Origin: Candidatus Methylomirabilota bacterium
GTDB taxonomy: Bacteria > Methylomirabilota > Methylomirabilia > Rokubacteriales > CSP1-6
DNA: 64,000 nucleotides
Direction: 5' to 3'
NCBI GenBank assembly: GCA_036397135.1
Contig: DASWJN010000069.1
Location: forward strand, 1,500 to 65,499
The stretch's first letter is position 1, and each line of letters begins with the position of its first letter. This document shows, piece by piece, positions 3,379 through 13,449 of the stretch. The notes beneath the pieces were generated by a model. The model was given only the letters and a program-made list of their open reading frames with translations. It was not told where the DNA came from and did no database searches. The position numbers were made by a program, and so were the translations under genes.

Positions 3379-4606
3379 CGTGAGTGACGCCGGCCTCCGG
3401 CAGCGTCCGTGGCGGGCGGTCGCGGCAGCCACCGCGCTCAACCTGCCGCTCGGCTCGCTCTACGCGTTCAGCGTGTTCCTGAAACCGCTCGAGACCCTGC
3501 TGGCGCTGAGCCGCGCCGACCTCGCGCTCGTCTTTGCCCTCGCCGCCGCCGGGTTCGGCGCCGGCATGAACCTCGCGCCCCACGTCTACGGCCTCGCGTC
3601 CACCCCGGCGCTGCTGCTGGGCTGCGCGGTCGCGAGCAGCCTGGGCATCGCGCTCGCCGCCACGGCGGGCGGCCTGGTTCAGCTCGCGCTCGGCTACGGC
3701 GTGCTCTTCGGCGTCGGCGGCGGCGCGGCCTACATCCTCGTGCAGCAGGCCGTGAACCTGGCGGTGACGCGCCGCCACGGCCTGGTGAACGGCTACGTCG
3801 TGGCGCTGTACCCGGCCGGCGCCATGATCGCCGCGCCCCTGTTCGGGTGGGCCGTCCGCGAGCTGGGCGTCCGCGTGACGCTCGGCGGACTCGCGACCGC
3901 GCTGGCCGTCACCGGCGCGACGAGCGCGTGGCTGATCGCGCAGTCGGGCGTCACGCTGGCGGCGGCCGGCGCGGCCGCGGTGCCGGACGCTCGAGAGCGA
4001 CGCCGGACGGTGTTCTGGCGGCTGTGGCTCGTCTTCTTCCTGGCGGCGTCCGCCGGGCTGATGGTGCTCAGCCAGGCTGCCGGCATCATCACGGCCTACG
4101 GCGGCGCGACCGCGCTGGCGGTCTATGGCACGACGTTCATCGCCGGCACGATCGCCGCCGCCCGGCTGGCGGGCGGCTGGATGGTCGACTGGCTGAGCAT
4201 TCCCACGCTGGCTGCCGGCGCCCACGCCGTCGCGCTCGCGGGCAACGTGGCGCTGACGCTGTGGCCGGGCCCCGGCGTGTCCGTGCTCGCGCTGGCGCTG
4301 GTGGGACTGGGCTACGGGTTGATCTCCGGCGTCACGGCGGCGGCGGTGGCCGTCTACTGGCGGCGGGCGCTGTACGGGCGCATGGCCAGCCGGATCTACC
4401 TGGCGTGGTGCGCCGCCGCCGTCGTCCTGCCGATCGCCGCCGGCCGCCTGTTCGACCTGACCCAGGGCTATGCCACGGCAGTCCTGATCGCCGCCGGGGG
4501 CAACGTCCTGGGCGTCCTCGTGGCGCTGGGGCTGCCCCGCGAGCGCGCGGCTCGAACCCAGGCCGAGCCCCGGTCGGGCCAGGCGGCGTCGCCGGCCGCC
4601 CGCTGA
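3344..4606 (+). CDS. MFS transporter (oxalate/formate antiporter-like)
   Basis: 12-TM hydrophobic profile. ATG 3344 overlaps the divergent VOC start region; an alternative GTG at 3380 is possible. Confidence 0.75.
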   Translation: MSGCAEYTLPAIVSDAGLRQRPWRAVAAATALNLPLGSLYAFSVFLKPLETLLALSRADLALVFALAAAGFGAGMNLAPHVYGLASTPALLLGCAVASSLGIALAATAGGLVQLALGYGVLFGVGGGAAYILVQQAVNLAVTRRHGLVNGYVVALYPAGAMIAAPLFGWAVRELGVRVTLGGLATALAVTGATSAWLIAQSGVTLAAAGAAAVPDARERRRTVFWRLWLVFFLAASAGLMVLSQAAGIITAYGGATALAVYGTTFIAGTIAAARLAGGWMVDWLSIPTLAAGAHAVALAGNVALTLWPGPGVSVLALALVGLGYGLISGVTAAAVAVYWRRALYGRMASRIYLAWCAAAVVLPIAAGRLFDLTQGYATAVLIAAGGNVLGVLVALGLPRERAARTQAEPRSGQAASPAAR

Positions 4607-4611
4607 CCTTC

Positions 4612-4863
4612 CTAGCGCGGACTATTCGGGAACGCCATGGTGCGCCTCGCGCGGGCCCTGGGGAGTGGGTGCGTGGGTTCCGGGGGCCGCCGGCGTTCCG
4701 TTGGCCTCGATGGTCTAACCGTCTCGCGCGCCGAACTCACCAAACCTCAGCAGGCGCAGCGGCCGGAATTGCGCGGAACGGCTGGCGGCTCCCGGAACCC
4801 ACGCACCCACCCCCAGGGCCGGCCCGGCGGTGTGTGTCGCCGTTCGTGAATAGTCCGCGCTAG
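4612..4863. repeat. ~250-bp imperfect palindromic intergenic element (MITE/REP-like hairpin) between convergent genes
   Basis: Terminal inverted repeats CTAGCGCGGACTATTC (4612-4627) and GAATAGTCCGCGCTAG (4848-4863). Inner inverted repeat CCCTGGGGAGTGGGTGCGTGGGTTCCGGGGGCCGCC versus GGCGGCTCCCGGAACCCACGCACCCACCCCCAGGG. The right terminus CTAG contains the TAG stop of the DsbA-like gene. Confidence 0.7.
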
Positions 4864-5486
4864 CCCTCGGCCTCGCTCGGCGACGCGGCTCTCTTCACGA
4901 GCTGCTCCAGCACCTCGTACGGCTGCGCGCCGACGACGCCGTGGCGGCCGGCGACGAACGTCGGCACGCCGGTCACGCCGATACGGCGCGAGATCTCCCA
5001 GTCCGCATCGATGGCAGCCTTGAACGTCCGCTGCTCCAGCACCTCGCGCGCGCCGTCCACCGACAGGCCCAGGCGCTCGACGACGTCCAGGAGGACGGCG
5101 GGCTGGGAGATGTCGCGCGCCTCCACGAAGTAGGCGCGGAACAGCGCATCGTGGAGGGCCTCGCCGCCCGGCTGCGTGTCGGCCCACTTGCCCAGCTCCT
5201 GGGCCAGGCGACTGTTGTAGGTCATCGTCCGATCGCCGTAGGGCAGGCCCTCGGCGTCCATGCGCGCCTTCATCTGGGCGTGCATGGCCTTGGGGTCCAC
5301 GTTGCGCCCCGCGAACAGGTCGGCCAGCGAGCGGCCTTCCGCCGGGGTGTCCGGGTGCAGGGGGAAGTGCACCCACTCGACCTTCACGTCGTGCTCGGCC
5401 CGGAGCTTCTCAATACGCACGGTACTGAGGTAGCACCAGGGTCAGACGTAGTCGGAGAAGACCTTCAGCGTCACCGGCCGGGTCAT
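4860..5486 (-). CDS. DsbA/FrnE-like thiol-disulfide oxidoreductase with in-frame TGA at the first Cys of the CxxC motif (selenoprotein candidate, or pseudogene)
   Basis: ATG (RC of 5484-5486) preceded by AGGAGG 5 nt upstream. Translation is MTRPVTLKVFSDYV-[TGA at 5442-5444]-PWCYLSTVRIEKLRAEHD..., matching the DsbA/FrnE N-terminal consensus ...SD..CPWCYiG. The remainder (GTG 5420 onward) is the 186-aa DsbA-family ORF in the track. Confidence 0.6.
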
Positions 5487-5596
5487 CACGCCTCCTGTCG
5501 TTGTATCCAGGTCGCAACCTCTTTGGAGAACGCCTCGAGGTCGGCCACGCCGGCCGTCGTTGCCTTCCGTCGTCGCGTGGCAGGCACGAGGGCGAG

Positions 5597-6172
5597 CTAT
5601 GGCAGCAGCTCGGCGACCGTGAGCCTCACGGACGGCAGGGCCAGCGGCGCGACCGTGCTCGCCGGCGCCAGCCTCTGCGCCGATCGGTATCGCCAGCCGT
5701 AGGGCGCGGTCGGATCCGGGCCCGGATCGCGGTAGACCTCGAGCACCCGATCGACCAGGTTGACGATCCAGTAGTCCTGCGCTCGGGCGCGGGCGTAGAG
5801 GCTGCCCTTGTGCTCCCGGTCGAAGGCAAGACTCGAGTCGGCCACCTCGACGATCAGCGCGGGAAGCGCGGGGTGAGCGTCGCGGTAGTCGGCCCGCGTT
5901 CCGCGAACCACGGCCAGGTCGGGCTCGGGCGCCGACTCGTCGTCGAGCGCCAGGGGCGCCTGCGACCGCACGATCCAGCCCGGCGGCAACGCGGCCCTGA
6001 GCCGGTCGTCGATCATGCCGACCGCGGTGACGTGATAGCTTCCCGGCGGCTCCGCGACGACGAGCTGCCCGCCGATGAGCTCGACGGGGTCGCCGCGGAA
6101 CACGTCGAGATCGACGAGCCGCTCGTACTCGGCGCGCTTCCAGCGCCGGAGTGTCAGCGGCGCCTGGGCCAT
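5597..6172 (-). CDS. Uma2 family endonuclease (DUF820, restriction-endonuclease-like fold)
   Basis: MAQAPLTLRRWKRAEYERLVDLDVF...ELIGGQLVVAEP...ALIVEVADSS is the typical Uma2 architecture. Confidence 0.65.
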   Translation of the reverse strand: MAQAPLTLRRWKRAEYERLVDLDVFRGDPVELIGGQLVVAEPPGSYHVTAVGMIDDRLRAALPPGWIVRSQAPLALDDESAPEPDLAVVRGTRADYRDAHPALPALIVEVADSSLAFDREHKGSLYARARAQDYWIVNLVDRVLEVYRDPGPDPTAPYGWRYRSAQRLAPASTVAPLALPSVRLTVAELLP

Positions 6173-6227
6173 GGTCGCCAGCCTAGAGGGCCCGACCGCC
6201 GCCGTCAATGTCGATGGATGCGGACGG

Positions 6228-7196
6228 TCAGGGCACCTTCACCAGCTTCTGGAGGCTGCGCAGCCCCGGGGGCGGTGGCGGCTGGCCCCTGTACCGGTTG
6301 CCCCAGTTGGTGTACGAGACCTCGCCGACGTAGATGTCGCCGCGCGAGTCGACGGCCAGGCCGTGCGGGGAGATGAACTGGCCCGGTTCCAGGCCGGCCG
6401 GGCGCCGGCCCAGCCGCGCCAGCAGCTCGCCCTTCTCGCCGTAGATGCTCACCCGCGGGCCGATGTTGGGCATGTCGAAGTTGACGCCGAGGCCGCCGCC
6501 GATCTCGCCGACGTAGAAGCGCGGGGAGGCGCCGCGCTCCAGGAACAGCCCGGACGGGCGGTGCATGTTCACCCACTGCGTCTCGAACCGCCCGGTGCCG
6601 TCGAACACCTGGATGCGGTGGTTCTCGCGGTCGGCCACGTAGACCCAGCCGTCGAGGTCGCAGCAGATATTGTGCGGGATGTTGAACTGGCCGGGATCGG
6701 TGCCCGGCTCGCCCCACGAGGAGAGCCGGGTGCCGTCCGGCGCGAACCTGTGCACGCGCGCGTTGCCGTAGCCGTCGGCGACGTAGAGGTCGCCCTGCGG
6801 CGAGAGCGCCGTGTGCGTGCAGCGGTGGAACGGCTCGCCGCTCATGTACGGCTGCGGCGCGCCGGGGATGCCGAGCGTCAGCAGCACCTTGCCGTCGAGC
6901 GTGCAGTGGCGGACGGTGTGGTCCCCGTCGTCGGTCAGCCACAGCGTGTCGTCGGGCGCCATGTGCACACCGTGCGCCCGGCGGAACACCCCTTCGCCCC
7001 ACGAGCGCCGGAAGTTGCCGTCGCGGTCGAGGACGACCATCGGGTGCGCGCCGCGGTTGAACGCGTAGACGCGGTCCTGCGCGTCCACCCCGACCGCGGC
7101 GACGTCGGCGTTGAACTCGCGCCCGGGCGGCAGCTTCGCCCAGTTGTCCACGACCTCGTAGCGATAGGCGCCCGTGCCCAGGATGACCGGCGTCAC
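6228..7196 (-). CDS. NHL-repeat beta-propeller protein (peptidylglycine amidating lyase-like)
   Basis: GTG (RC 7194-7196) after a GGGAGG SD. Repeated YVADxxNxRIQVFD-type NHL motifs (DLYVADGYGNARVHRF, VYVADRENHRIQVFD, IYVGEV). GTGA overlap with the PTE stop. Confidence 0.75.
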   Translation of the reverse strand: MTPVILGTGAYRYEVVDNWAKLPPGREFNADVAAVGVDAQDRVYAFNRGAHPMVVLDRDGNFRRSWGEGVFRRAHGVHMAPDDTLWLTDDGDHTVRHCTLDGKVLLTLGIPGAPQPYMSGEPFHRCTHTALSPQGDLYVADGYGNARVHRFAPDGTRLSSWGEPGTDPGQFNIPHNICCDLDGWVYVADRENHRIQVFDGTGRFETQWVNMHRPSGLFLERGASPRFYVGEIGGGLGVNFDMPNIGPRVSIYGEKGELLARLGRRPAGLEPGQFISPHGLAVDSRGDIYVGEVSYTNWGNRYRGQPPPPPGLRSLQKLVKVP

Positions 7197-8146
7197 GCGT
7201 CGCCTCCCTTCCGCGCCTCGAAGATCGCGCGCGGGTTGCGCACGAGCATCTGCTCGATCTGGTCCTCGCTCACGCCCGCCTTGCGGAGGGCGGGGAGGAT
7301 GTCGTCGGGGATGTGGTTGTAGTGCCAGAGCGGGCGCGTCCGGCGCTTGTCGTCCTCGGAGAGCATGTCGGTCCAGCAGTTGGCGTCGTGCGAGAGGACC
7401 ATCCGGCCCGCGTAGCCCTCGGCGCAGAGCCGGGCGAGCACCTCCACCCGCTTCGCCGTCGGCAGGAAGTTCTCGAGGCCGAAGCGGTCCATCCCGATCG
7501 TGCTGCCCCGCTCCATCAGGCCGCGCAGGTAGCCCAGGTCCTTGCTGTCGCCGCTGTGGCCGATGATCACGCGGCCGAGGTCCACTCCCTCCTGCGCGAA
7601 GATCGCCTGCTGCATCTCGCCGGTCCGGCCCGCGGCCCAGGTGTGGGTCGAGATCGGCACCCCGGTCGCCCGCTGGGCCCGCGCGGCCGCGCGCAGGATG
7701 TTGTCGATCACCGGCGTCACGCCGGCGGTGTCGGTGGCGCACTTGATGATGGCCGCCTTGACGCCGCTCGTCCCGATGCCCTGGGTGATGTCGCGGATGA
7801 ACAGGTCGGCCACCGCGTCCACGCCGTGGGCGCTGAAGTACCGCTGGGGCATCCACCAGACGCCGGTGGCCACGACGATGTGGACGCGCGAGCGCCGGGC
7901 CACGCCGGCGATGAGGTCGATGTCGCGCCCGAGATCGACGGTGGTCAGGTCCACGATCGTCCGGATGCCCCGGCCGTGGAGGTCGGCCAGCTTGCGCTCG
8001 GCGAGGTCGAGGATGGCCGCCCGGTCCCAGAGATGGGGCCAGTTCTCCTGCACCCCCGGCGAGCGCGTGACGACGTGCTCGTGCATCAGTGTCGGCCCCA
8101 GCTCGGCCGTGGCCACCGGCCCGCGCGCTGTCTCCACCGTGGTCAT
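7193..8146 (-). CDS. phosphotriesterase-like protein (PTE/PLL amidohydrolase-superfamily lactonase family)
   Basis: MTTVETARGPVATAELGPTLMHEHVV... carries the His-x-His metal motif and a TIM-barrel PTE family signature. GGAGGAGG SD upstream. Confidence 0.85.
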   Translation of the reverse strand: MTTVETARGPVATAELGPTLMHEHVVTRSPGVQENWPHLWDRAAILDLAERKLADLHGRGIRTIVDLTTVDLGRDIDLIAGVARRSRVHIVVATGVWWMPQRYFSAHGVDAVADLFIRDITQGIGTSGVKAAIIKCATDTAGVTPVIDNILRAAARAQRATGVPISTHTWAAGRTGEMQQAIFAQEGVDLGRVIIGHSGDSKDLGYLRGLMERGSTIGMDRFGLENFLPTAKRVEVLARLCAEGYAGRMVLSHDANCWTDMLSEDDKRRTRPLWHYNHIPDDILPALRKAGVSEDQIEQMLVRNPRAIFEARKGGDA

Positions 8147-8291
8147 GCGGCCTCCTCCGGATCCGAGAGTGTCCCCGCCTGCGACCGGCGTAGGGTAGCA
8201 CTCACGCCGGCCCGAGCGGCGATCGGGTTACTATCGCGCCGGGACTCGTGAGCCACTGACCCTGCCACCCCCACAGGAGCCATCGTCCGAC

Positions 8292-10223
8292 ATGAAGCCG
8301 CTCGATCCCGCCGCCCGGGTGTCGCGCCCCGAGTTCGACGTGCACCTGACCGAGAACGTGCCGGTGCCCATGCGCGACGGCGTGCGCCTGGCCACCGACG
8401 TCTATCGTCCGGCCCGCGACGGGCGGCCCGTGTCCGATCGGCGCCCGGTCCTCCTGCATCGCACGCCCTACAACAAGACGGAGACCGAGGCCACGCTCGG
8501 CCAGTGCCGCTGGTTCGCCGCGCGCGGCTGGGTGGTGGTCAACCAGGACTGCCGCGGCTGCTTCCGCTCCGAGGGCGAGGTGAACTTCCTGGCGCCCGAG
8601 GCCGAGGACGGCGCCGACACGATCGCGTGGATCCGCCGCCGGGAGTGGGCGAACGGGACGGTGGGCTCCTTCGGCACCTCGTGGTCGGGCTGGACGCAGA
8701 CCGCCATGGCCGCGCTGGGGCCCGAGGGCCTCGCGACGATGGTGCCGAACATGAGCGGCGCCGATGCCCACGAGAGCTCGGTCCGGCACGGCGGCGCCCT
8801 CGAGCTGCGCTTCCTCGCCTGGGCTTTCTGGCACTCGGCGTACAACACCCGGGCCGCGCTCGAGACCTCGCCCGCCGTCACGCCCGCGCTCAACGTGGGC
8901 GCCCCGCCGTTCTCGGACTGGCTCCAGCGCATGCCCATCCGGCCGGGCCAGACCCAGCTCGCGCTGGTGCCGCCCTACGAGAAATGGGCGCTGGAGATCC
9001 TCACCCGCGCGGACTACGACGACTACTGGAAGCACCCGAGCCTCAACCCGCGGCTGCACTGGGACCGGTTCCCCGACATGCCGATCCTCTTCGTGGGCGG
9101 CTGGTACGACTCGTACACGCGGGCGACCTTCCAGAACTTCGTCGGCCTCCAGGCGGGCGGGCGGCGGACGGTTCGCGCGCTCGTCGGCCCGTGGACGCAC
9201 GGGGCGAGGACCGCGGAGCTGTCCCACGCCGGCGACGTGGAGTTCGGGCGCGAGGCGGCGCTGCCGAGCTTCGACGAGGTGCATCTGCGCTGGTTCGACC
9301 GGTGGCTGCGCGGCGTGGACAACGGCCTGGACGGCGAGGCGCCGCTGCGCATCTTCGTGATGGGCGGTGGCTCGGGGCGGCGCTCGGGCGCCGGCCGGCT
9401 CGTGCACGGCGGGCGCTGGCGCGACGAGCGCGAGTGGCCGCTGGCGCGCACGCGATTCACCGAATTCCACCTGCACGGCGACGGGTCGCTCCGTCCCGAG
9501 CCGCCGCGCGAGGAGCGCTCGTCCACCGCCTACAGCTTCGATCCCGCCCACCCGGTGCCGTCCATCGGCGGCAACGTCTCGTCGCTGCGCGACGTGCTGC
9601 CGCTGCCGGCCGGCATCGCGGATCCGAGCTACGCCGGGCGGGGCGAGCGGACGGCGGACGTCATGGCCCCGGGCGGCTTCGACCAGCGCGAGGGGCCGGC
9701 CTTTCATGGCTGCCGCCCGCCGTACCTGCCGCTCGGCTCCCGCCCCGACGTCCTCGTCTTTCAGACGGAGCCTCTGCGGGAGCCGACCGAGGTGACCGGG
9801 CCCATCGAGGTCGTCCTGTGGGTCGCGACATCCGCGGCGGACACCGACTTCACGGCCAAGCTCGTCGACGTCTATCCGCCGAGCCCGTGGCATCCGCTCG
9901 GCTACGCGCTCAACCTGACCGACAGCATCGCCCGCCTGCGCTATCGCAACGGCCGCGAGCGCGGGGAGCTCGCGACGCCGGGCGTTCCCGTCCAGGTCAC
10001 CATCACGCTGTACCCGACGAGCAACCTCTTCGTGCCCGGCCACCGGATCCGCCTGGACATCTCCAGCTCGAACCACCCCCGGTTCGACGTCAACCCCAAC
10101 ACGGGCGAGCCGATCGGGCGCGAGCGTCGCCGCGTCGTCGCCGACAACACCGTGTTCCACGAGCGCGGCCGCGCATCCCGGATCGTCCTGCCGATCATCC
10201 CGCTCGAACCGTCACACCCCTGA
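8292..10223 (+). CDS. CocE/NonD family hydrolase (S15 X-Pro dipeptidyl-peptidase-like)
   Basis: 643 aa with HRTPYNKTE, GSFGTSWSGW (nucleophile elbow) and a C-terminal CocE beta-sandwich. Confidence 0.85.
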   Translation: MKPLDPAARVSRPEFDVHLTENVPVPMRDGVRLATDVYRPARDGRPVSDRRPVLLHRTPYNKTETEATLGQCRWFAARGWVVVNQDCRGCFRSEGEVNFLAPEAEDGADTIAWIRRREWANGTVGSFGTSWSGWTQTAMAALGPEGLATMVPNMSGADAHESSVRHGGALELRFLAWAFWHSAYNTRAALETSPAVTPALNVGAPPFSDWLQRMPIRPGQTQLALVPPYEKWALEILTRADYDDYWKHPSLNPRLHWDRFPDMPILFVGGWYDSYTRATFQNFVGLQAGGRRTVRALVGPWTHGARTAELSHAGDVEFGREAALPSFDEVHLRWFDRWLRGVDNGLDGEAPLRIFVMGGGSGRRSGAGRLVHGGRWRDEREWPLARTRFTEFHLHGDGSLRPEPPREERSSTAYSFDPAHPVPSIGGNVSSLRDVLPLPAGIADPSYAGRGERTADVMAPGGFDQREGPAFHGCRPPYLPLGSRPDVLVFQTEPLREPTEVTGPIEVVLWVATSAADTDFTAKLVDVYPPSPWHPLGYALNLTDSIARLRYRNGRERGELATPGVPVQVTITLYPTSNLFVPGHRIRLDISSSNHPRFDVNPNTGEPIGRERRRVVADNTVFHERGRASRIVLPIIPLEPSHP

Positions 10224-10232
10224 GGAGGTCTC

Positions 10233-11147
10233 ATGGCACCGCTCGAAGCTCACGACCCGGGTCTCCACGATCTCGTCGCCTCCGACGCGCCCCTCGACCG
10301 CATCGCCGGCGGGCTCGGCTTCACCGAAGGGCCGGTGTGGCGCGGTGGCGCGCTGCTCTTCAGCGACATCCCGAACAAGCGCATCGTGCGCTGGCGCCGG
10401 CTGCCGGAGGGCCCGGAGCTGACCACCTTCGCCACGGGCACGTCCAACGGCCTGACGCTGGACCGCCAGGGCCGGGTGCTGGCGGCGGAGCACGACGGCC
10501 GCCGCGTGGCCCGCGTCGCCGACGACGGCACGCGCACCGTCCTGGCCGAGCAGTTCCAGGGCAAGCGGCTCAACAGCCCCAACGACATCGTGGTCAGGTC
10601 CGACGGTTCCATCTATTTCACCGACCCGCCGTACGGCGTTCGGCCTGTCGCGCCGGGCACGGTGCGGCCCGCGGGCTGGTGGACCAGGCCGATCGAGGGC
10701 AAGGAGCAGCCGTGTCACGGCGTGTACCGGATCTCGCCCGACGGAACCCTTCACCTGCTGGTGGACGACTTCGCGCTGCCCAACGGCCTGGCCTTCTCGC
10801 CCGACGAATCCGTCCTCTACGTCGACGACTCGGCCCACAAGCATATCCGCGCGCTGGACGTGCGGCCGGACGGCACCCTGACCGGCAGCCGCATCCTGCT
10901 CGACATGGCGTCGGAGGATCCCGGCGTGCCCGACGGCCTCAAGGTGGACGTGCACGGCCACGTGTTCTGCACGGGGCCGGGCGGCGTCTGGGTGTGCCGG
11001 CCGGACGGCGCGTTGCTCGGGCGGATCGTCCTGCCGGAGCTGCCGGCGAACCTGGGCTGGGGCGAGGACGGCAGCGTCCTCTACGTGACGGCGCGCACCA
11101 GCGTCTACCGGCTGCCGACCCGGACGCGCGGGATGTTGCCGGGCTGA
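10233..11147 (+). CDS. SMP-30/gluconolactonase/LRE family protein
   Basis: 304 aa. GFTEGPVW...NGLTLD...SPNDIVV...NGLAFSPDE, a six-bladed propeller lactonase signature. Confidence 0.85.
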   Translation: MAPLEAHDPGLHDLVASDAPLDRIAGGLGFTEGPVWRGGALLFSDIPNKRIVRWRRLPEGPELTTFATGTSNGLTLDRQGRVLAAEHDGRRVARVADDGTRTVLAEQFQGKRLNSPNDIVVRSDGSIYFTDPPYGVRPVAPGTVRPAGWWTRPIEGKEQPCHGVYRISPDGTLHLLVDDFALPNGLAFSPDESVLYVDDSAHKHIRALDVRPDGTLTGSRILLDMASEDPGVPDGLKVDVHGHVFCTGPGGVWVCRPDGALLGRIVLPELPANLGWGEDGSVLYVTARTSVYRLPTRTRGMLPG

Positions 11148-11253: not shown

Positions 11254-13449
11254 TCACCGCCGCATCCGGAAGCGGTCGATCACGTTCTCGAGAATGCGCG
11301 AGACGTTGTTGTCGTAGCGGTTGTGCGACAGGCTGCCGCAGAAGGTGATGGACCCCACGGCGAAGATGGCGCCGCCGCCGGGCAGCTCGGCGTAGGTCAT
11401 GTCCGCCCGCAGCAGGCGGGCGGGCGGATCGCCCGTGACGGTCGAGATGTGGGAGAGCAGCTCCTCGGGGACCACGATGAAGCTCGGGCCGTGCCCCTCG
11501 GAGCTGGCGATCGTGATCGCGCCGGCGGGCGTGCCGAGTCGCGGGTCGGCCCGGTCGAGCTCGAACCCCGCCGCGCCTCCGCCCGACAGTCCGAAATCGC
11601 CGATGATGTCGTCCTTGACCCCGTCGAGGATCCACGCGGCCCGGGGGTCGTCGGCGCCGGGCTGGCGGCGATAGTACGAGCCCTCGAACAGCCCCTGCGC
11701 CGAGAAGCCGACGGCGGCGAGCTGCTGCGGCGGCCGCCCGTTGCGCCGCCAGAGCCCGCCGTAGGCGCCGTCGAGCGCGTGATAGTACTCGCCCACCTGG
11801 GCGTCCCAGGTCCGGATGCCGCCCTCGGCGCGCCGCACCTCGAGGACGCCGGGCACGGCCGGGCTGGTGGCGATGCGCCAGTAGAAGCCGTTGCCGCCGA
11901 GGTAGATCAGGCGCCCGCCGCCGTCGAGGTAGCCCGCGTGGGCGTCGAGCGTGCGGGCGGTGTGGTACTCGGGGTGGGAGCCGGTCAGCACGGTCGCGTA
12001 GGGAGCGAGCAGGGCCGAGCCCTCGGCGTCGACGTCCTCGTCGGTGACGACGTCGTGGCGGATGCCCTGCGCGTCGAGCCAGCCGAGCAGGTGCGTGTCG
12101 GCCGGGTAGTGACGCAGGCCCGAGCCGCGCGCGTCGTGGAAGGTGAGATAGCGCGGCCGGAAGGTCAGCACCGGACGCAGCCGCGAGGAGTAGCAGATGC
12201 CGCTGCCGTCGCGGTGCCGGTTGTAGGTCGACCGGCCGTACTCGGGATGATCGTCCGCGTTGTGCGGGTAGGCGCCCCAGGCGGCGATGCGCGCGCGGAA
12301 GGCGTCGTCCAGGCTGCTGCGGGCGTGATTGGCGTAGGCCTGGTAGGTGTAGGTCGACGCGATGAAGAGCACGTCCGCCCCCGGACGTCCGCGGGGCGGG
12401 CGCACGTAGAACGGCAGCTCGTCCGCGTGGCCCTCGGCGGCCAGGCGCATGACGTAGGCGCCGCTCGGCAGGTCCTCGGGCACCGTGAACTCGAAGTCGG
12501 TCGCCCAGCCGGCGTCGTGGAGGTCGTCGTCGTGGAAGTGAATGGCCGCGTACTCGCGCGGCGCGTGCCGCCAGCACATCTCGCGTCCCGTCCAGCGGGC
12601 GCCGGTGACCGCGCGGGTGGGCAGGTTGACCAGCCGCCCGCCGAGCCGGTGGGGGCCGACGTCGACGACGTCGAGCCCCTCGATGCCCTGCGAGAAGTCC
12701 CAGCCCGCCACCAAGCCGTCGGGCGGCAGCAGGGGATCGAGCACCAGCGCCTCCGGCGCCGCTGCCGCGACGGCGAGCAGCATGGGGTCCTCGATCCTGC
12801 CGTTGAAGTGCTCGCACGCGTCGGGCGCCAGGCGCGCGCCGAGCAGCAGCGGGACCGCCGCGTCGAGCCGGGCGCCGCGCGGCAACGGCGCCGTCACCTC
12901 GTGGCGCTCGCCCCGGGCGCCGCCGGCGAGCGAGGCGTGGCCGGCGCGCAGCGTGTCCGCCTCCGGGTCGGCCACCAGCCAGACCCGGTACCACCGGCGA
13001 AGCGTCAGGGGGCGCGCCGTGGCGAGCGCGAGCGGCGCGCCGCCGGGAACGCCGACGCGCGCGGTGACGCCGCCGGGGCCCACCGACAGCGCCCACCCCG
13101 CGCCGCCCGCCTCGTCCCAGCGCGAGACCACGCACTGCTCGCCGCGGGCCAGCGTCGGCCAGACCAGGGCGGTCACGGTGAGCGGGCCGGCGGTGCGCAG
13201 CGCGGCGGCACCGTCGACGCGCGCGTGGGAGCCCAGCGCGATCGGCTGCACGCGCGAGGGCCGCTCGATGGCAAAGCGATGAACGAGGTCCTCGACCTTC
13301 ACGCCGGGCCCGGCCGGGTTGGGATCGGCGTGCACCACGCGCGCCAGGCTGGCGCGATAGGGACCGGCCGCGGCGCTCGAGATCTTGAAGGCGAGACGCT
13401 CGCCGGCCGCGGCCGAGAGCCGGTCGGTGTAGCCGGTCAGCGGGATCAC
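11254..13449 (-). CDS. N,N-dimethylformamidase large (beta) subunit family protein
   Basis: GTG start (RC 13447-13449) encoding VIPLTGYTDRLSAAAGERLAFKISS..., then FIASTYTYQAYANH, LIYLGGNGFYWRIA and a C-terminal ...FAVGSITFCGSL. Full-length match to the DmfA2-like family (~731 aa). The remainder of the 1507-aa track ORF is antisense read-through. Confidence 0.8.
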   Translation of the reverse strand: MIPLTGYTDRLSAAAGERLAFKISSAAAGPYRASLARVVHADPNPAGPGVKVEDLVHRFAIERPSRVQPIALGSHARVDGAAALRTAGPLTVTALVWPTLARGEQCVVSRWDEAGGAGWALSVGPGGVTARVGVPGGAPLALATARPLTLRRWYRVWLVADPEADTLRAGHASLAGGARGERHEVTAPLPRGARLDAAVPLLLGARLAPDACEHFNGRIEDPMLLAVAAAAPEALVLDPLLPPDGLVAGWDFSQGIEGLDVVDVGPHRLGGRLVNLPTRAVTGARWTGREMCWRHAPREYAAIHFHDDDLHDAGWATDFEFTVPEDLPSGAYVMRLAAEGHADELPFYVRPPRGRPGADVLFIASTYTYQAYANHARSSLDDAFRARIAAWGAYPHNADDHPEYGRSTYNRHRDGSGICYSSRLRPVLTFRPRYLTFHDARGSGLRHYPADTHLLGWLDAQGIRHDVVTDEDVDAEGSALLAPYATVLTGSHPEYHTARTLDAHAGYLDGGGRLIYLGGNGFYWRIATSPAVPGVLEVRRAEGGIRTWDAQVGEYYHALDGAYGGLWRRNGRPPQQLAAVGFSAQGLFEGSYYRRQPGADDPRAAWILDGVKDDIIGDFGLSGGGAAGFELDRADPRLGTPAGAITIASSEGHGPSFIVVPEELLSHISTVTGDPPARLLRADMTYAELPGGGAIFAVGSITFCGSLSHNRYDNNVSRILENVIDRFRMRR

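Follow-up and report, generated by a model that had tools for sequence, protein, structure and literature searches.

A predicted selenocysteine codon in the active site of a FrnE/DsbA-like oxidoreductase gene from Rokubacteriales

Identification of the gene

A stretch of 64,000 nucleotides (hereafter the window) from a Candidatus Methylomirabilota bacterium of the order Rokubacteriales (assembly GCA_036397135.1, contig DASWJN010000069.1, positions 1,500–65,499) carries, at positions 5486–4860 of the minus strand, a gene for a DsbA-family oxidoreductase with an in-frame TGA. On sequence evidence, we consider it to be a genuine selenocysteine (Sec, U)-encoding gene of the known DsbA-like family with a UxxC motif, at a probability of roughly 0.9. 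The original prediction, made from the letters of the window, had called it a candidate selenoprotein. This is supported by the pairing of Sec with Cys in natural orthologues, by the conservation of both the TGA and the upstream reading frame, by a hairpin resembling a Sec insertion sequence (SECIS) directly after the TGA, by the linkage of sel genes in two orthologous loci and by a selenoprotein family already described in the literature.

The full coding sequence (4860–5486, minus strand) comprises 208 codons including the Sec codon, as judged by translation, the Pfam match and the match to FrnE. The Shine–Dalgarno sequence AGGAGG that had been read before the ATG is indeed present at 5496–5491, 4 nt upstream of the start codon at 5486–5484. 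An in-frame GTG at 5489–5487 is an alternative start. Orthologues start with ATG or GTG at the same position as the window gene, and a GGAGG-like sequence lies at the same spot in related loci, where it is visible as translated 'GG' or 'EA' before the start codon. Translation of 5486–4860 also reproduces the predicted frame: 14 sense codons (MTRPVTLKVFSDYV) are followed by the TGA at 5444–5442 and then by PWCYLSTVRIEKL... (PWCYLS...), which runs into the 186-aa open reading frame (ORF) and continues uninterrupted to the TAG at 4862–4860. The only Cys/Sec residues of the protein are the predicted Sec15, nucleophile of the motif U-P-W-C, and Cys18 (TGC, 5435–5433), its predicted resolving cysteine. 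The latter codon is TGC in 78 of 78 distinct orthologous coding sequences, and the residue aligns with the second Cys of the FrnE motif CPWC.

Protein family and active site

With the TGA replaced by Cys, the 208-aa product matches Pfam DSBA (PF01323) with 120.7 bits (cut-off 25.6; E=8.4e-35) over residues 6–197 and profile positions 1–190 of 191. As the match begins at residue 6, the 14 upstream codons belong to the domain and contribute its first strand and the CxxC motif. No specific NCBIfam model reached its cut-off for this product. The nearest solved structure is Deinococcus radiodurans FrnE (5CNW; E=1.5e-22 over residues 5–193). In this alignment, SDYV-TGA-PWCYLS is placed against SDIACPWCYIG, with the TGA opposite the first Cys of CPWC. 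The position that had been proposed for the TGA, the nucleophilic Cys of CxxC, therefore holds against FrnE as well as against the natural Cys orthologues (TGT/TGC).

A second motif, GVTGVPTFV, aligns with GITGVPFFV of FrnE and contains the Pro175 codon (4964–4962, minus strand), which would form the cis-proline loop of the thioredoxin fold. G173, V174, P175, T176 and F177 are invariant in the homologue alignment, and altogether 72 residues are invariant, which indicates purifying selection on the rest of the gene.

A Cys homologue (P0002, 82% identical) was modelled with AlphaFold. The mean predicted local distance difference test score (pLDDT) was 62, with values below 50 for the active-site segment and for residues 170–188 (the cis-Pro loop); the underlying alignment was shallow. 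A Foldseek search with this low-confidence model placed FrnE first (TM-score ~0.4, root-mean-square deviation ~14 Å), and DsbA structures were among the weaker matches. The predicted structure was used for consistency with the sequence result only, and its order of secondary-structure elements is consistent with a thioredoxin fold with a helical insertion.

Taken together, the product is very probably a 208-residue thiol-disulfide oxidoreductase of the FrnE/DsbA-like type (PF01323, COG2761-type), with the predicted active site Sec15-Pro-Trp-Cys18. COG2761 is the COG that we take to be of the FrnE type. It lacks an apparent signal peptide and would therefore be located in the cytoplasm.

Conserved TGA and upstream reading frame

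A collection of 5.8 billion proteins was searched, and 8000 matches were returned, of which the best 120 (75–99% identity) were examined. Among these, 117 cover just 87–89% of the query and begin with V/MRIEKL, corresponding to a start at GTG 5420. Only three of the best 120 span the whole query; at the Sec position, two of them have Cys and the third has Gly. For the coding DNA, a scan of species-representative genomes yielded 502 stretches encoding a relative. The best 80 were kept and four were added via exact protein look-up, giving 84 loci. Most of them come from metagenome-assembled genomes (MAGs) that bear the label Candidatus Rokubacteria, Rokuibacteriota or Methylomirabilota, while a group of about ten, with 68–72% identity, is assigned to Burkholderiales, Betaproteobacteria or Alphaproteobacteria.

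Of the 84 loci, 81 have TGA at the Sec codon. In the remaining three, all Burkholderiales MAGs (L074, L079 and L081), the alignment pairs it with TGT or TGC. Cys is also found at this position in the proteins P0002 and P0089, and the natural replacement is never Trp. Since the same TGA occurs in 81 independently assembled loci from both short-read and long-read data, a sequencing error or a private pseudogene is excluded.

The codons before the TGA vary in the way of a translated sequence. The upstream Pro is 94% conserved, yet it is encoded by CCG (30), CCC (24), CCA (17) and CCT (2); Val11 is encoded by GTC (71), GTG (3), GTT (3) and GTA (1). The upstream 11–14 codons are thus kept as protein with synonymous variation, which means that they are translated in this frame. 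The Cys orthologues read straight through the position. UGA is also the commonest ordinary stop, as the likely genes of the window (n=40) end with TGA in 24 cases, TAG in 11 and TAA in 5, so that the code is not reassigned genome-wide. In a neighbour-joining tree, the three Cys forms make up one clade nested among TGA-bearing proteobacterial forms. This suggests that Sec was replaced by Cys and that the constraint on the RNA was relaxed afterwards.

Some individual sequences deviated from this pattern. A metagenomic contig (L085:898–1527, protein P0022) has GGA (Gly) at the Sec codon, with an intact downstream hairpin identical to that of L066; a sequencing error in one base would explain this, as would a rare variant that is presumably inactive. 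The codons before the TGA are out of frame at L001/L017:9930–9976 (...EAS*CRQ*RCRVFSDYV*) on a 3.28-Mb long-read Rokubacteria contig, which looks like an assembly indel error and not a biological change. Two MAGs contain two TGA-bearing copies each on separate contigs (L014 and L024 in OBJ2_061818_090_42; L053 and L067 in SMAG_U15472), and these are either real paralogues or co-binned strains. Moreover, sequences with 75–86% identity to the Rokubacteria gene occur in MAGs with the labels Myxococcales, Acidobacteria, Deferrimicrobiaceae, Dormiibacterota, Verrucomicrobiia, Limnocylindria, Planctomycetota and Enterobacteriaceae (L010, L013, L022, L026, L046, L053, L054, L066 and L076). These labels probably reflect binning or labelling noise and not the true distribution.

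The RNA element downstream of the UGA

The alignment of 57 distinct sequences (51 columns) revealed a nearly invariant block of 36 nt, TGACCCTGGTGCTAYCTCAGTACCGTGCGTATTGAG, at 5444–5409 of the minus strand, which comprises the UGA and the SECIS region. Of its 36 columns, 28 show no variation at all, and conservation reaches at least 90% in a further 4. Synonymous variation is suppressed here: mean synonymous codon entropy was 0.26 for the 11 codons after the TGA versus 0.77 for the 130 other conserved codons (Mann–Whitney p=1.5e-4). Codons that are otherwise rare are fixed in the block, namely AGT (75 of 78), CGT (78 of 78) and ATT (75 of 75). In the genes of the window, they account for 2.2%, 4.2% and 2.3% of the Ser, Arg and Ile codons, respectively, so that the joint expectation is ~2e-5.

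The predicted core of a bacterial SECIS (bSECIS) lies at 5429–5409, starting 12 nt past the UGA. It consists of an 8-bp stem (CUCAGUAC/GUAUUGAG) and a 5-nt loop, CGUGC (5421–5417). RNAfold returned this hairpin for the window (66 nt, −27.2 kcal/mol, z=−3.24) and for nearly all orthologues, and the RNAalifold consensus kept 7 pairs of the 8-bp hairpin. In L041, L053 and L066, the pair U21-A31 is replaced by C21-G31, i.e. the change is compensated. One of the two changes, A to G, costs an Ile-to-Val substitution. As L041 is not sister to L053/L066 in the neighbour-joining tree, the compensated change may have happened twice.

The element differs in the Cys orthologues. In L074 and L079, unrelated sequence stands in place of the hairpin, which has been lost, and precisely there the encoded peptide departs from the others (PWCYLASARVARL). 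In L081, the 5' arm is kept (CTCAGTAC), while the G and U of the loop are lost. In this locus, Sec seems to have given way to Cys only recently, with the putative SECIS decaying.

Published bSECIS criteria are a loop of 3–9 nt, an upper stem of 4–16 bp and a minimum free energy of ≤−7.5 kcal/mol (PMC13188914, Fig. 2 legend), together with a G at loop position 1 or 2, after which G or U is usual, and a distance of 16–37 nt from UGA to loop (PMC13188914). The hairpin agrees with all four criteria: it has a 5-nt loop, an 8-bp stem, a spacing of 20 nt and a bare-hairpin energy of −7.5 kcal/mol. Position 2 of the loop is an invariant G followed by a U that is at least 90% conserved. The fold energy of the 51-nt segment is −20.9 kcal/mol. 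Rfam gave no matching family (see below).

The two small hairpins that the original prediction had noted fared less well. GGUGC-UACCUCA-GUACC excludes the conserved 8-bp stem; its loop would begin only 9 nt past the UGA and lacks a G at positions 1 and 2. For GCUC-CGGGCC-GAGC, 15 of the 57 sequences have a base other than C or U in column 42, without compensation in the partner column 49, which is at least 90% G. Neither of the two is the relevant element, and the conserved 8-bp hairpin at 5429–5409 had been missed. The minimum-free-energy fold of the window additionally suggests an extended lower helix around the core hairpin (5440–5399, minus strand). Four of the five outermost pairs (columns 5–9/42–46) are broken in 13–38 of the 57 sequences without compensation, so that such a long lower helix, which would enclose the UGA, is weakly supported and kept as a possible feature only.

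Sec machinery and further candidate selenoprotein genes

ARAGORN was run on the window and on loci L001–L084, and tblastn searches were carried out with E. coli SelA, SelB and SelD sequences, which served as probes only. The identifications reported here for L075 and L078 rest on curated models (NCBIfam, Rfam) and not on the tblastn probes.

L075, a 1.6-Mb contig of a betaproteobacterial MAG, has selA (TIGR00474, 394 bits; cut-off 268), selB (TIGR00475, 373.5 bits; cut-off 242) and a tRNA-Sec (ARAGORN anticodon tca; Rfam RF01852, 72 bits versus 47), which end ~530 nt upstream of a TGA-bearing DsbA-like orthologue. In L078, which is also TGA-bearing, selD (TIGR00476, 305 bits versus 125) lies ~2.7 kb upstream of the orthologue.

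All loci were scanned for in-frame TGAs that have coding-like composition both before and after them. In L075, this completed a compact 'Sec island' at 4971–10624 with the order CMD-like(U), selA, selB, tRNA-Sec, Prx-like(U) and DsbA-like(U). The CxxU gene (HQCVYU; TGA at 5344–5346) lies on the opposite (minus) strand, adjoins selA and has no Pfam match of its own. It is followed by selA (~6149–7480, apparently frameshifted in the long-read assembly), selB (7489 to ~9340) and tRNA-Sec (9374–9469). Between the tRNA-Sec and the DsbA-like gene (10001–10624) is the Prx-like gene, which reads FYRGHWUPYC, with its TGA at 9645–9647 and its end at 9995 (AhpC-TSA, E=2.5e-21). The flanking ORFs tested around this cluster included neither an integrase nor a transposase.

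Two Rokubacteria/Methylomirabilota loci, L055:18125–18719 (minus strand, on a 2.75-Mb contig) and L069:3781–4429 (minus strand), contain a TGA-interrupted CMD/AhpD-like gene with the motif NACRYU (CxxU). Pfam CMD (PF02627) spans the TGA (E ~3e-19), a GC-rich hairpin (AUGCCGG-GGC-CCGGCAU) starts 13 nt past the UGA, and the top NCBIfam match is 'YciW-related (seleno)protein' (NF053654), below its cut-off. By these predictions, contigs of the lineage hold at least two unrelated genes in which a TGA takes the place of a redox Cys in an established selenoprotein family. In published work, a Methylomirabilota MAG has 63 predicted selenoprotein genes (PMC13188914) and Sec-containing hydrogenases have been reported in Methylomirabilota.

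A further candidate selenoprotein was noted on a contig labelled Candidatus Limnocylindria (L054:18348–19359, minus strand). It is a PrdB-like gene with an in-frame TGA in VPSUPVC (UxxC), matching TIGR04483 with E=3.6e-26, below the cut-off of that model.

Proposed mechanism

We infer from the sequence that UGA-15 would be decoded as Sec with the help of SelB. Translation would start at the ATG at 5486, downstream of AGGAGG, and the ribosome would meet the UGA at codon 15. As it approaches, the hairpin with its 8-bp stem and CGUGC loop would bind SelB-GTP carrying Sec-tRNA(Sec), and the SelB complex would insert Sec in competition with release factor 2. In the protein, Sec15 at the start of helix alpha-1 would be the attacking nucleophile on substrate disulfides. 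Cys18 would resolve the reaction by forming a selenenylsulfide with Sec15 during thiol-disulfide exchange. Under selenium limitation, termination at the UGA would leave a peptide of 14 residues.

The UGA and SECIS block is almost base-identical across Rokubacteria and beta- and alphaproteobacterial MAGs, while the proteins are only 68–72% identical. Together with the arrangement in L075, this raises a speculative and rather unlikely scenario: the gene might be part of a horizontally transferred 'Sec starter kit' of decoding machinery and redox selenoprotein clients that moved between soil phyla; Rokubacteria would have retained the client once the machinery had been relocated within the genome.

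Evidence against and alternative explanations

Several results weigh against a Sec-encoding gene. Covariation in the hairpin is thin, with a single compensated pair in three sequences, and the shuffle controls were unimpressive; these weak statistics arise because the element hardly varies. The energy of the bare hairpin is just at the threshold of −7.5 kcal/mol. As a control, the same criteria were applied to the 1189 UGA triplets of the window, and ~17% pass by chance. Hence, the fit to the SECIS model alone is weak, and the weight is on the invariance of the block, the fixation of rare codons and the compensated pair. No Rfam family reached its gathering score anywhere in the window, and a permissive search of 5340–5500 gave only noise at 7.6–12.9 bits (snoRNA families, RsmV), far below the gathering scores. 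Finally, ARAGORN and tblastn found none of selA, selB, selC and selD in either the 64-kb window or the ~1.1 Mb of Rokubacteria-type loci. The evidence for Sec machinery thus comes from orthologous loci and not from the window genome or, directly, from any Rokubacteria genome.

This last result, along with the unspecific fit of the hairpin to the SECIS model, is what a read-through without selenium would build on. A near-cognate Trp or Cys tRNA, or a tRNA(Sec) charged with Cys, would decode the UGA, and the hairpin would be a mere stimulator of read-through. We consider this quite improbable, as the position is the catalytic Cys of CxxC and is naturally replaced by Cys but never by Trp. A lineage needing Cys there would just use TGC, as the three orthologues with TGT/TGC do. 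Moreover, one orthologue adjoins selA, selB and tRNA-Sec (L075), another lies ~2.7 kb from selD (L078), and Methylomirabilota are reported to be rich in selenoproteins (PMC13188914). The chance that the TGA is a genuine stop is very small. In that case, the product would be the 186-residue protein from the GTG at 5420–5418 (ORF 4860–5420), and the 14 upstream codons would be an untranslated leader or encode a short leader peptide. The mechanical ORF listing and public annotations do give this ORF, and UGA is the usual stop codon of the genome. However, the shorter product would have neither strand beta-1 nor any part of the CxxC active site; in the long form, the Pfam DSBA match begins at residue 6. 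In ~80 assemblies, the upstream codons keep the frame and the encoded protein sequence with synonymous variation, and the Cys orthologues read through the position without a stop. The GTG itself sits in the apical loop (G-U-G) of the conserved hairpin, and the sequence before it, as read, has no Shine–Dalgarno of its own. There is next to no room for a pseudogene or a sequencing or assembly error in which TGC or TGT was misread as, or mutated to, TGA. These codons are one base apart, and the GGA in L085 illustrates that single-base variants or errors occur at this codon, but an identical TGA in 81 independently assembled loci from short- and long-read projects and the purifying selection elsewhere in the gene (72 invariant residues) speak against it. 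A Sec codon remains the reading that we prefer.

Genomic neighbourhood and other features of the window

Next to the gene, the window has a major facilitator superfamily (MFS) transporter, an amidase and members of the Uma2 and phosphotriesterase families; related loci have other neighbours, and no operon partner is conserved. An exact look-up of the phosphotriesterase gave no record. The Uma2-family gene (putative restriction endonuclease fold, PF05685; 5597–6208, minus strand) lies directly upstream of the DsbA-like gene on the same strand and was not seen in the gene tables of the related loci L001–L004. A consensus scan of 4600–5700 found no promoter or terminator, and the window contains no Cys paralogue of the DsbA-like gene. 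G+C is 70–74% throughout the 64-kb window, with the genome given as 72% GC.

Another in-frame TGA, at 10221–10223 (plus strand), was rejected as a selenoprotein codon. It separates two ordinary, complete adjacent genes in the same frame, an S15-family peptidase (8292–10223) and an SMP-30/gluconolactonase-like gene (10233–11147), with TGAGGAGGtctcATG at the junction. Positions 10221–10235 read cccTGAGGAGGtctcATG, and the stop overlaps the Shine–Dalgarno sequence of the SMP-30/gluconolactonase-like gene. ARAGORN also called an 84-nt 'tRNA-Ala (agc)' at 12610–12693 (plus strand). It lies inside long ORFs, has no Rfam tRNA match at gathering score and is probably a false positive.

Implications for annotation

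In public records, the product appears as a shortened 'predicted DsbA family dithiol-disulfide isomerase'. The window gene and thousands of metagenomic relatives are recorded in databases as 186-residue proteins without an active site, and functional or structural inferences from such records are wrong if the gene is read as proposed here. This exposes a systematic mis-annotation in an abundant soil lineage. Moreover, the selenoproteome of Rokubacteria/Methylomirabilota, soil bacteria that are abundant, uncultured and recently reported to be unusually rich in selenoproteins, gains a well-supported predicted cytoplasmic UxxC oxidoreductase, and the gene is a clean example of overlapping protein and RNA constraints. 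Knowledge of Sec decoding and of the DsbA-like selenoprotein family, known since 2005, is unchanged; the gene will hardly surprise specialists, although it makes an unusually clean case. In the literature searched, no description of this Rokubacteria clade and no work on Sec use in Rokubacteria were found; co-mentions concern KSB1 and archaeal protein fusions.

Comparison with known systems

Among solved structures, the closest relative is the cytoplasmic disulfide oxidoreductase FrnE of D. radiodurans (DR_0659; PDB 5CNW, 5CP1, 5CO3, 5COH, 5XWH). Both proteins share the SD..CPWCY context and the GVP loop, with Cys in FrnE in place of the predicted Sec, whereas identity is only ~30%. FrnE has 260 residues, while the last residue of the window protein is 208 (...ASPSEAEG), and Cys18 is its only Cys. 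The C-terminal tail of FrnE reportedly bears a second CX4C motif. As regards this tail, the predicted protein is outside the Deinococcus FrnE subtype.

Periplasmic DsbA (E. coli type, CPHC) belongs to the same Pfam clan and shares the predicted thioredoxin fold with a helical insertion. Unlike DsbA, the window protein has no signal peptide or hydrophobic leader, and MTRPVTLKVFSDYV leads straight into strand beta-1. Its dipeptide is PW (motif UPWC) instead of PH, and DsbA sequences match only the C-terminal ~50 residues (E ~1e-5). By sequence, it is not a member of the periplasmic DsbA subfamily.

The RNA element resembles the SelB-recognised SECIS of E. coli fdhF and fdnG in that a hairpin follows shortly after the UGA within the coding region and presents a G and then a U in its apical loop. 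Its spacing is inside the consensus range of 16–37 nt, as in bacterial SECIS elements of the E. coli type. In contrast, there is no primary-sequence similarity to the fdhF/fdnG elements, and the upper stem of the window hairpin shows no evident bulged U.

The original prediction had referred to a known bacterial selenoprotein family of the DsbA-like type, and the literature bears this out (PMC1088965, PMC1794560, PMC13188914). Zhang, Fomenko and Gladyshev described the family in 2005 (COG2761, PF01323, UxxC with Sec for the first Cys) from nine Sargasso Sea sequences with a predicted SECIS (PMC1088965). Further members were later found in Anaeromyxobacter, Desulfovibrio and Desulfotomaculum (PMC1794560), and a 2026 review lists the family as 'DsbA-like protein form 1' (PMC13188914). 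The window gene shares with it the Pfam family, the UxxC motif, a SECIS-type hairpin right after the UGA with a G in the loop, and widespread Cys homologues. As a predicted member, it has every testable defining feature of the family. The shared Pfam family and motif, rather than a direct sequence comparison, point to the same subfamily as the published AACY01178397 and NIP15863.1. The known examples come from marine metagenomes and anaerobes, whereas the clade of the window gene consists of Rokubacteria/Methylomirabilota from soil and groundwater, and related genes occur in beta- and alphaproteobacterial MAGs.

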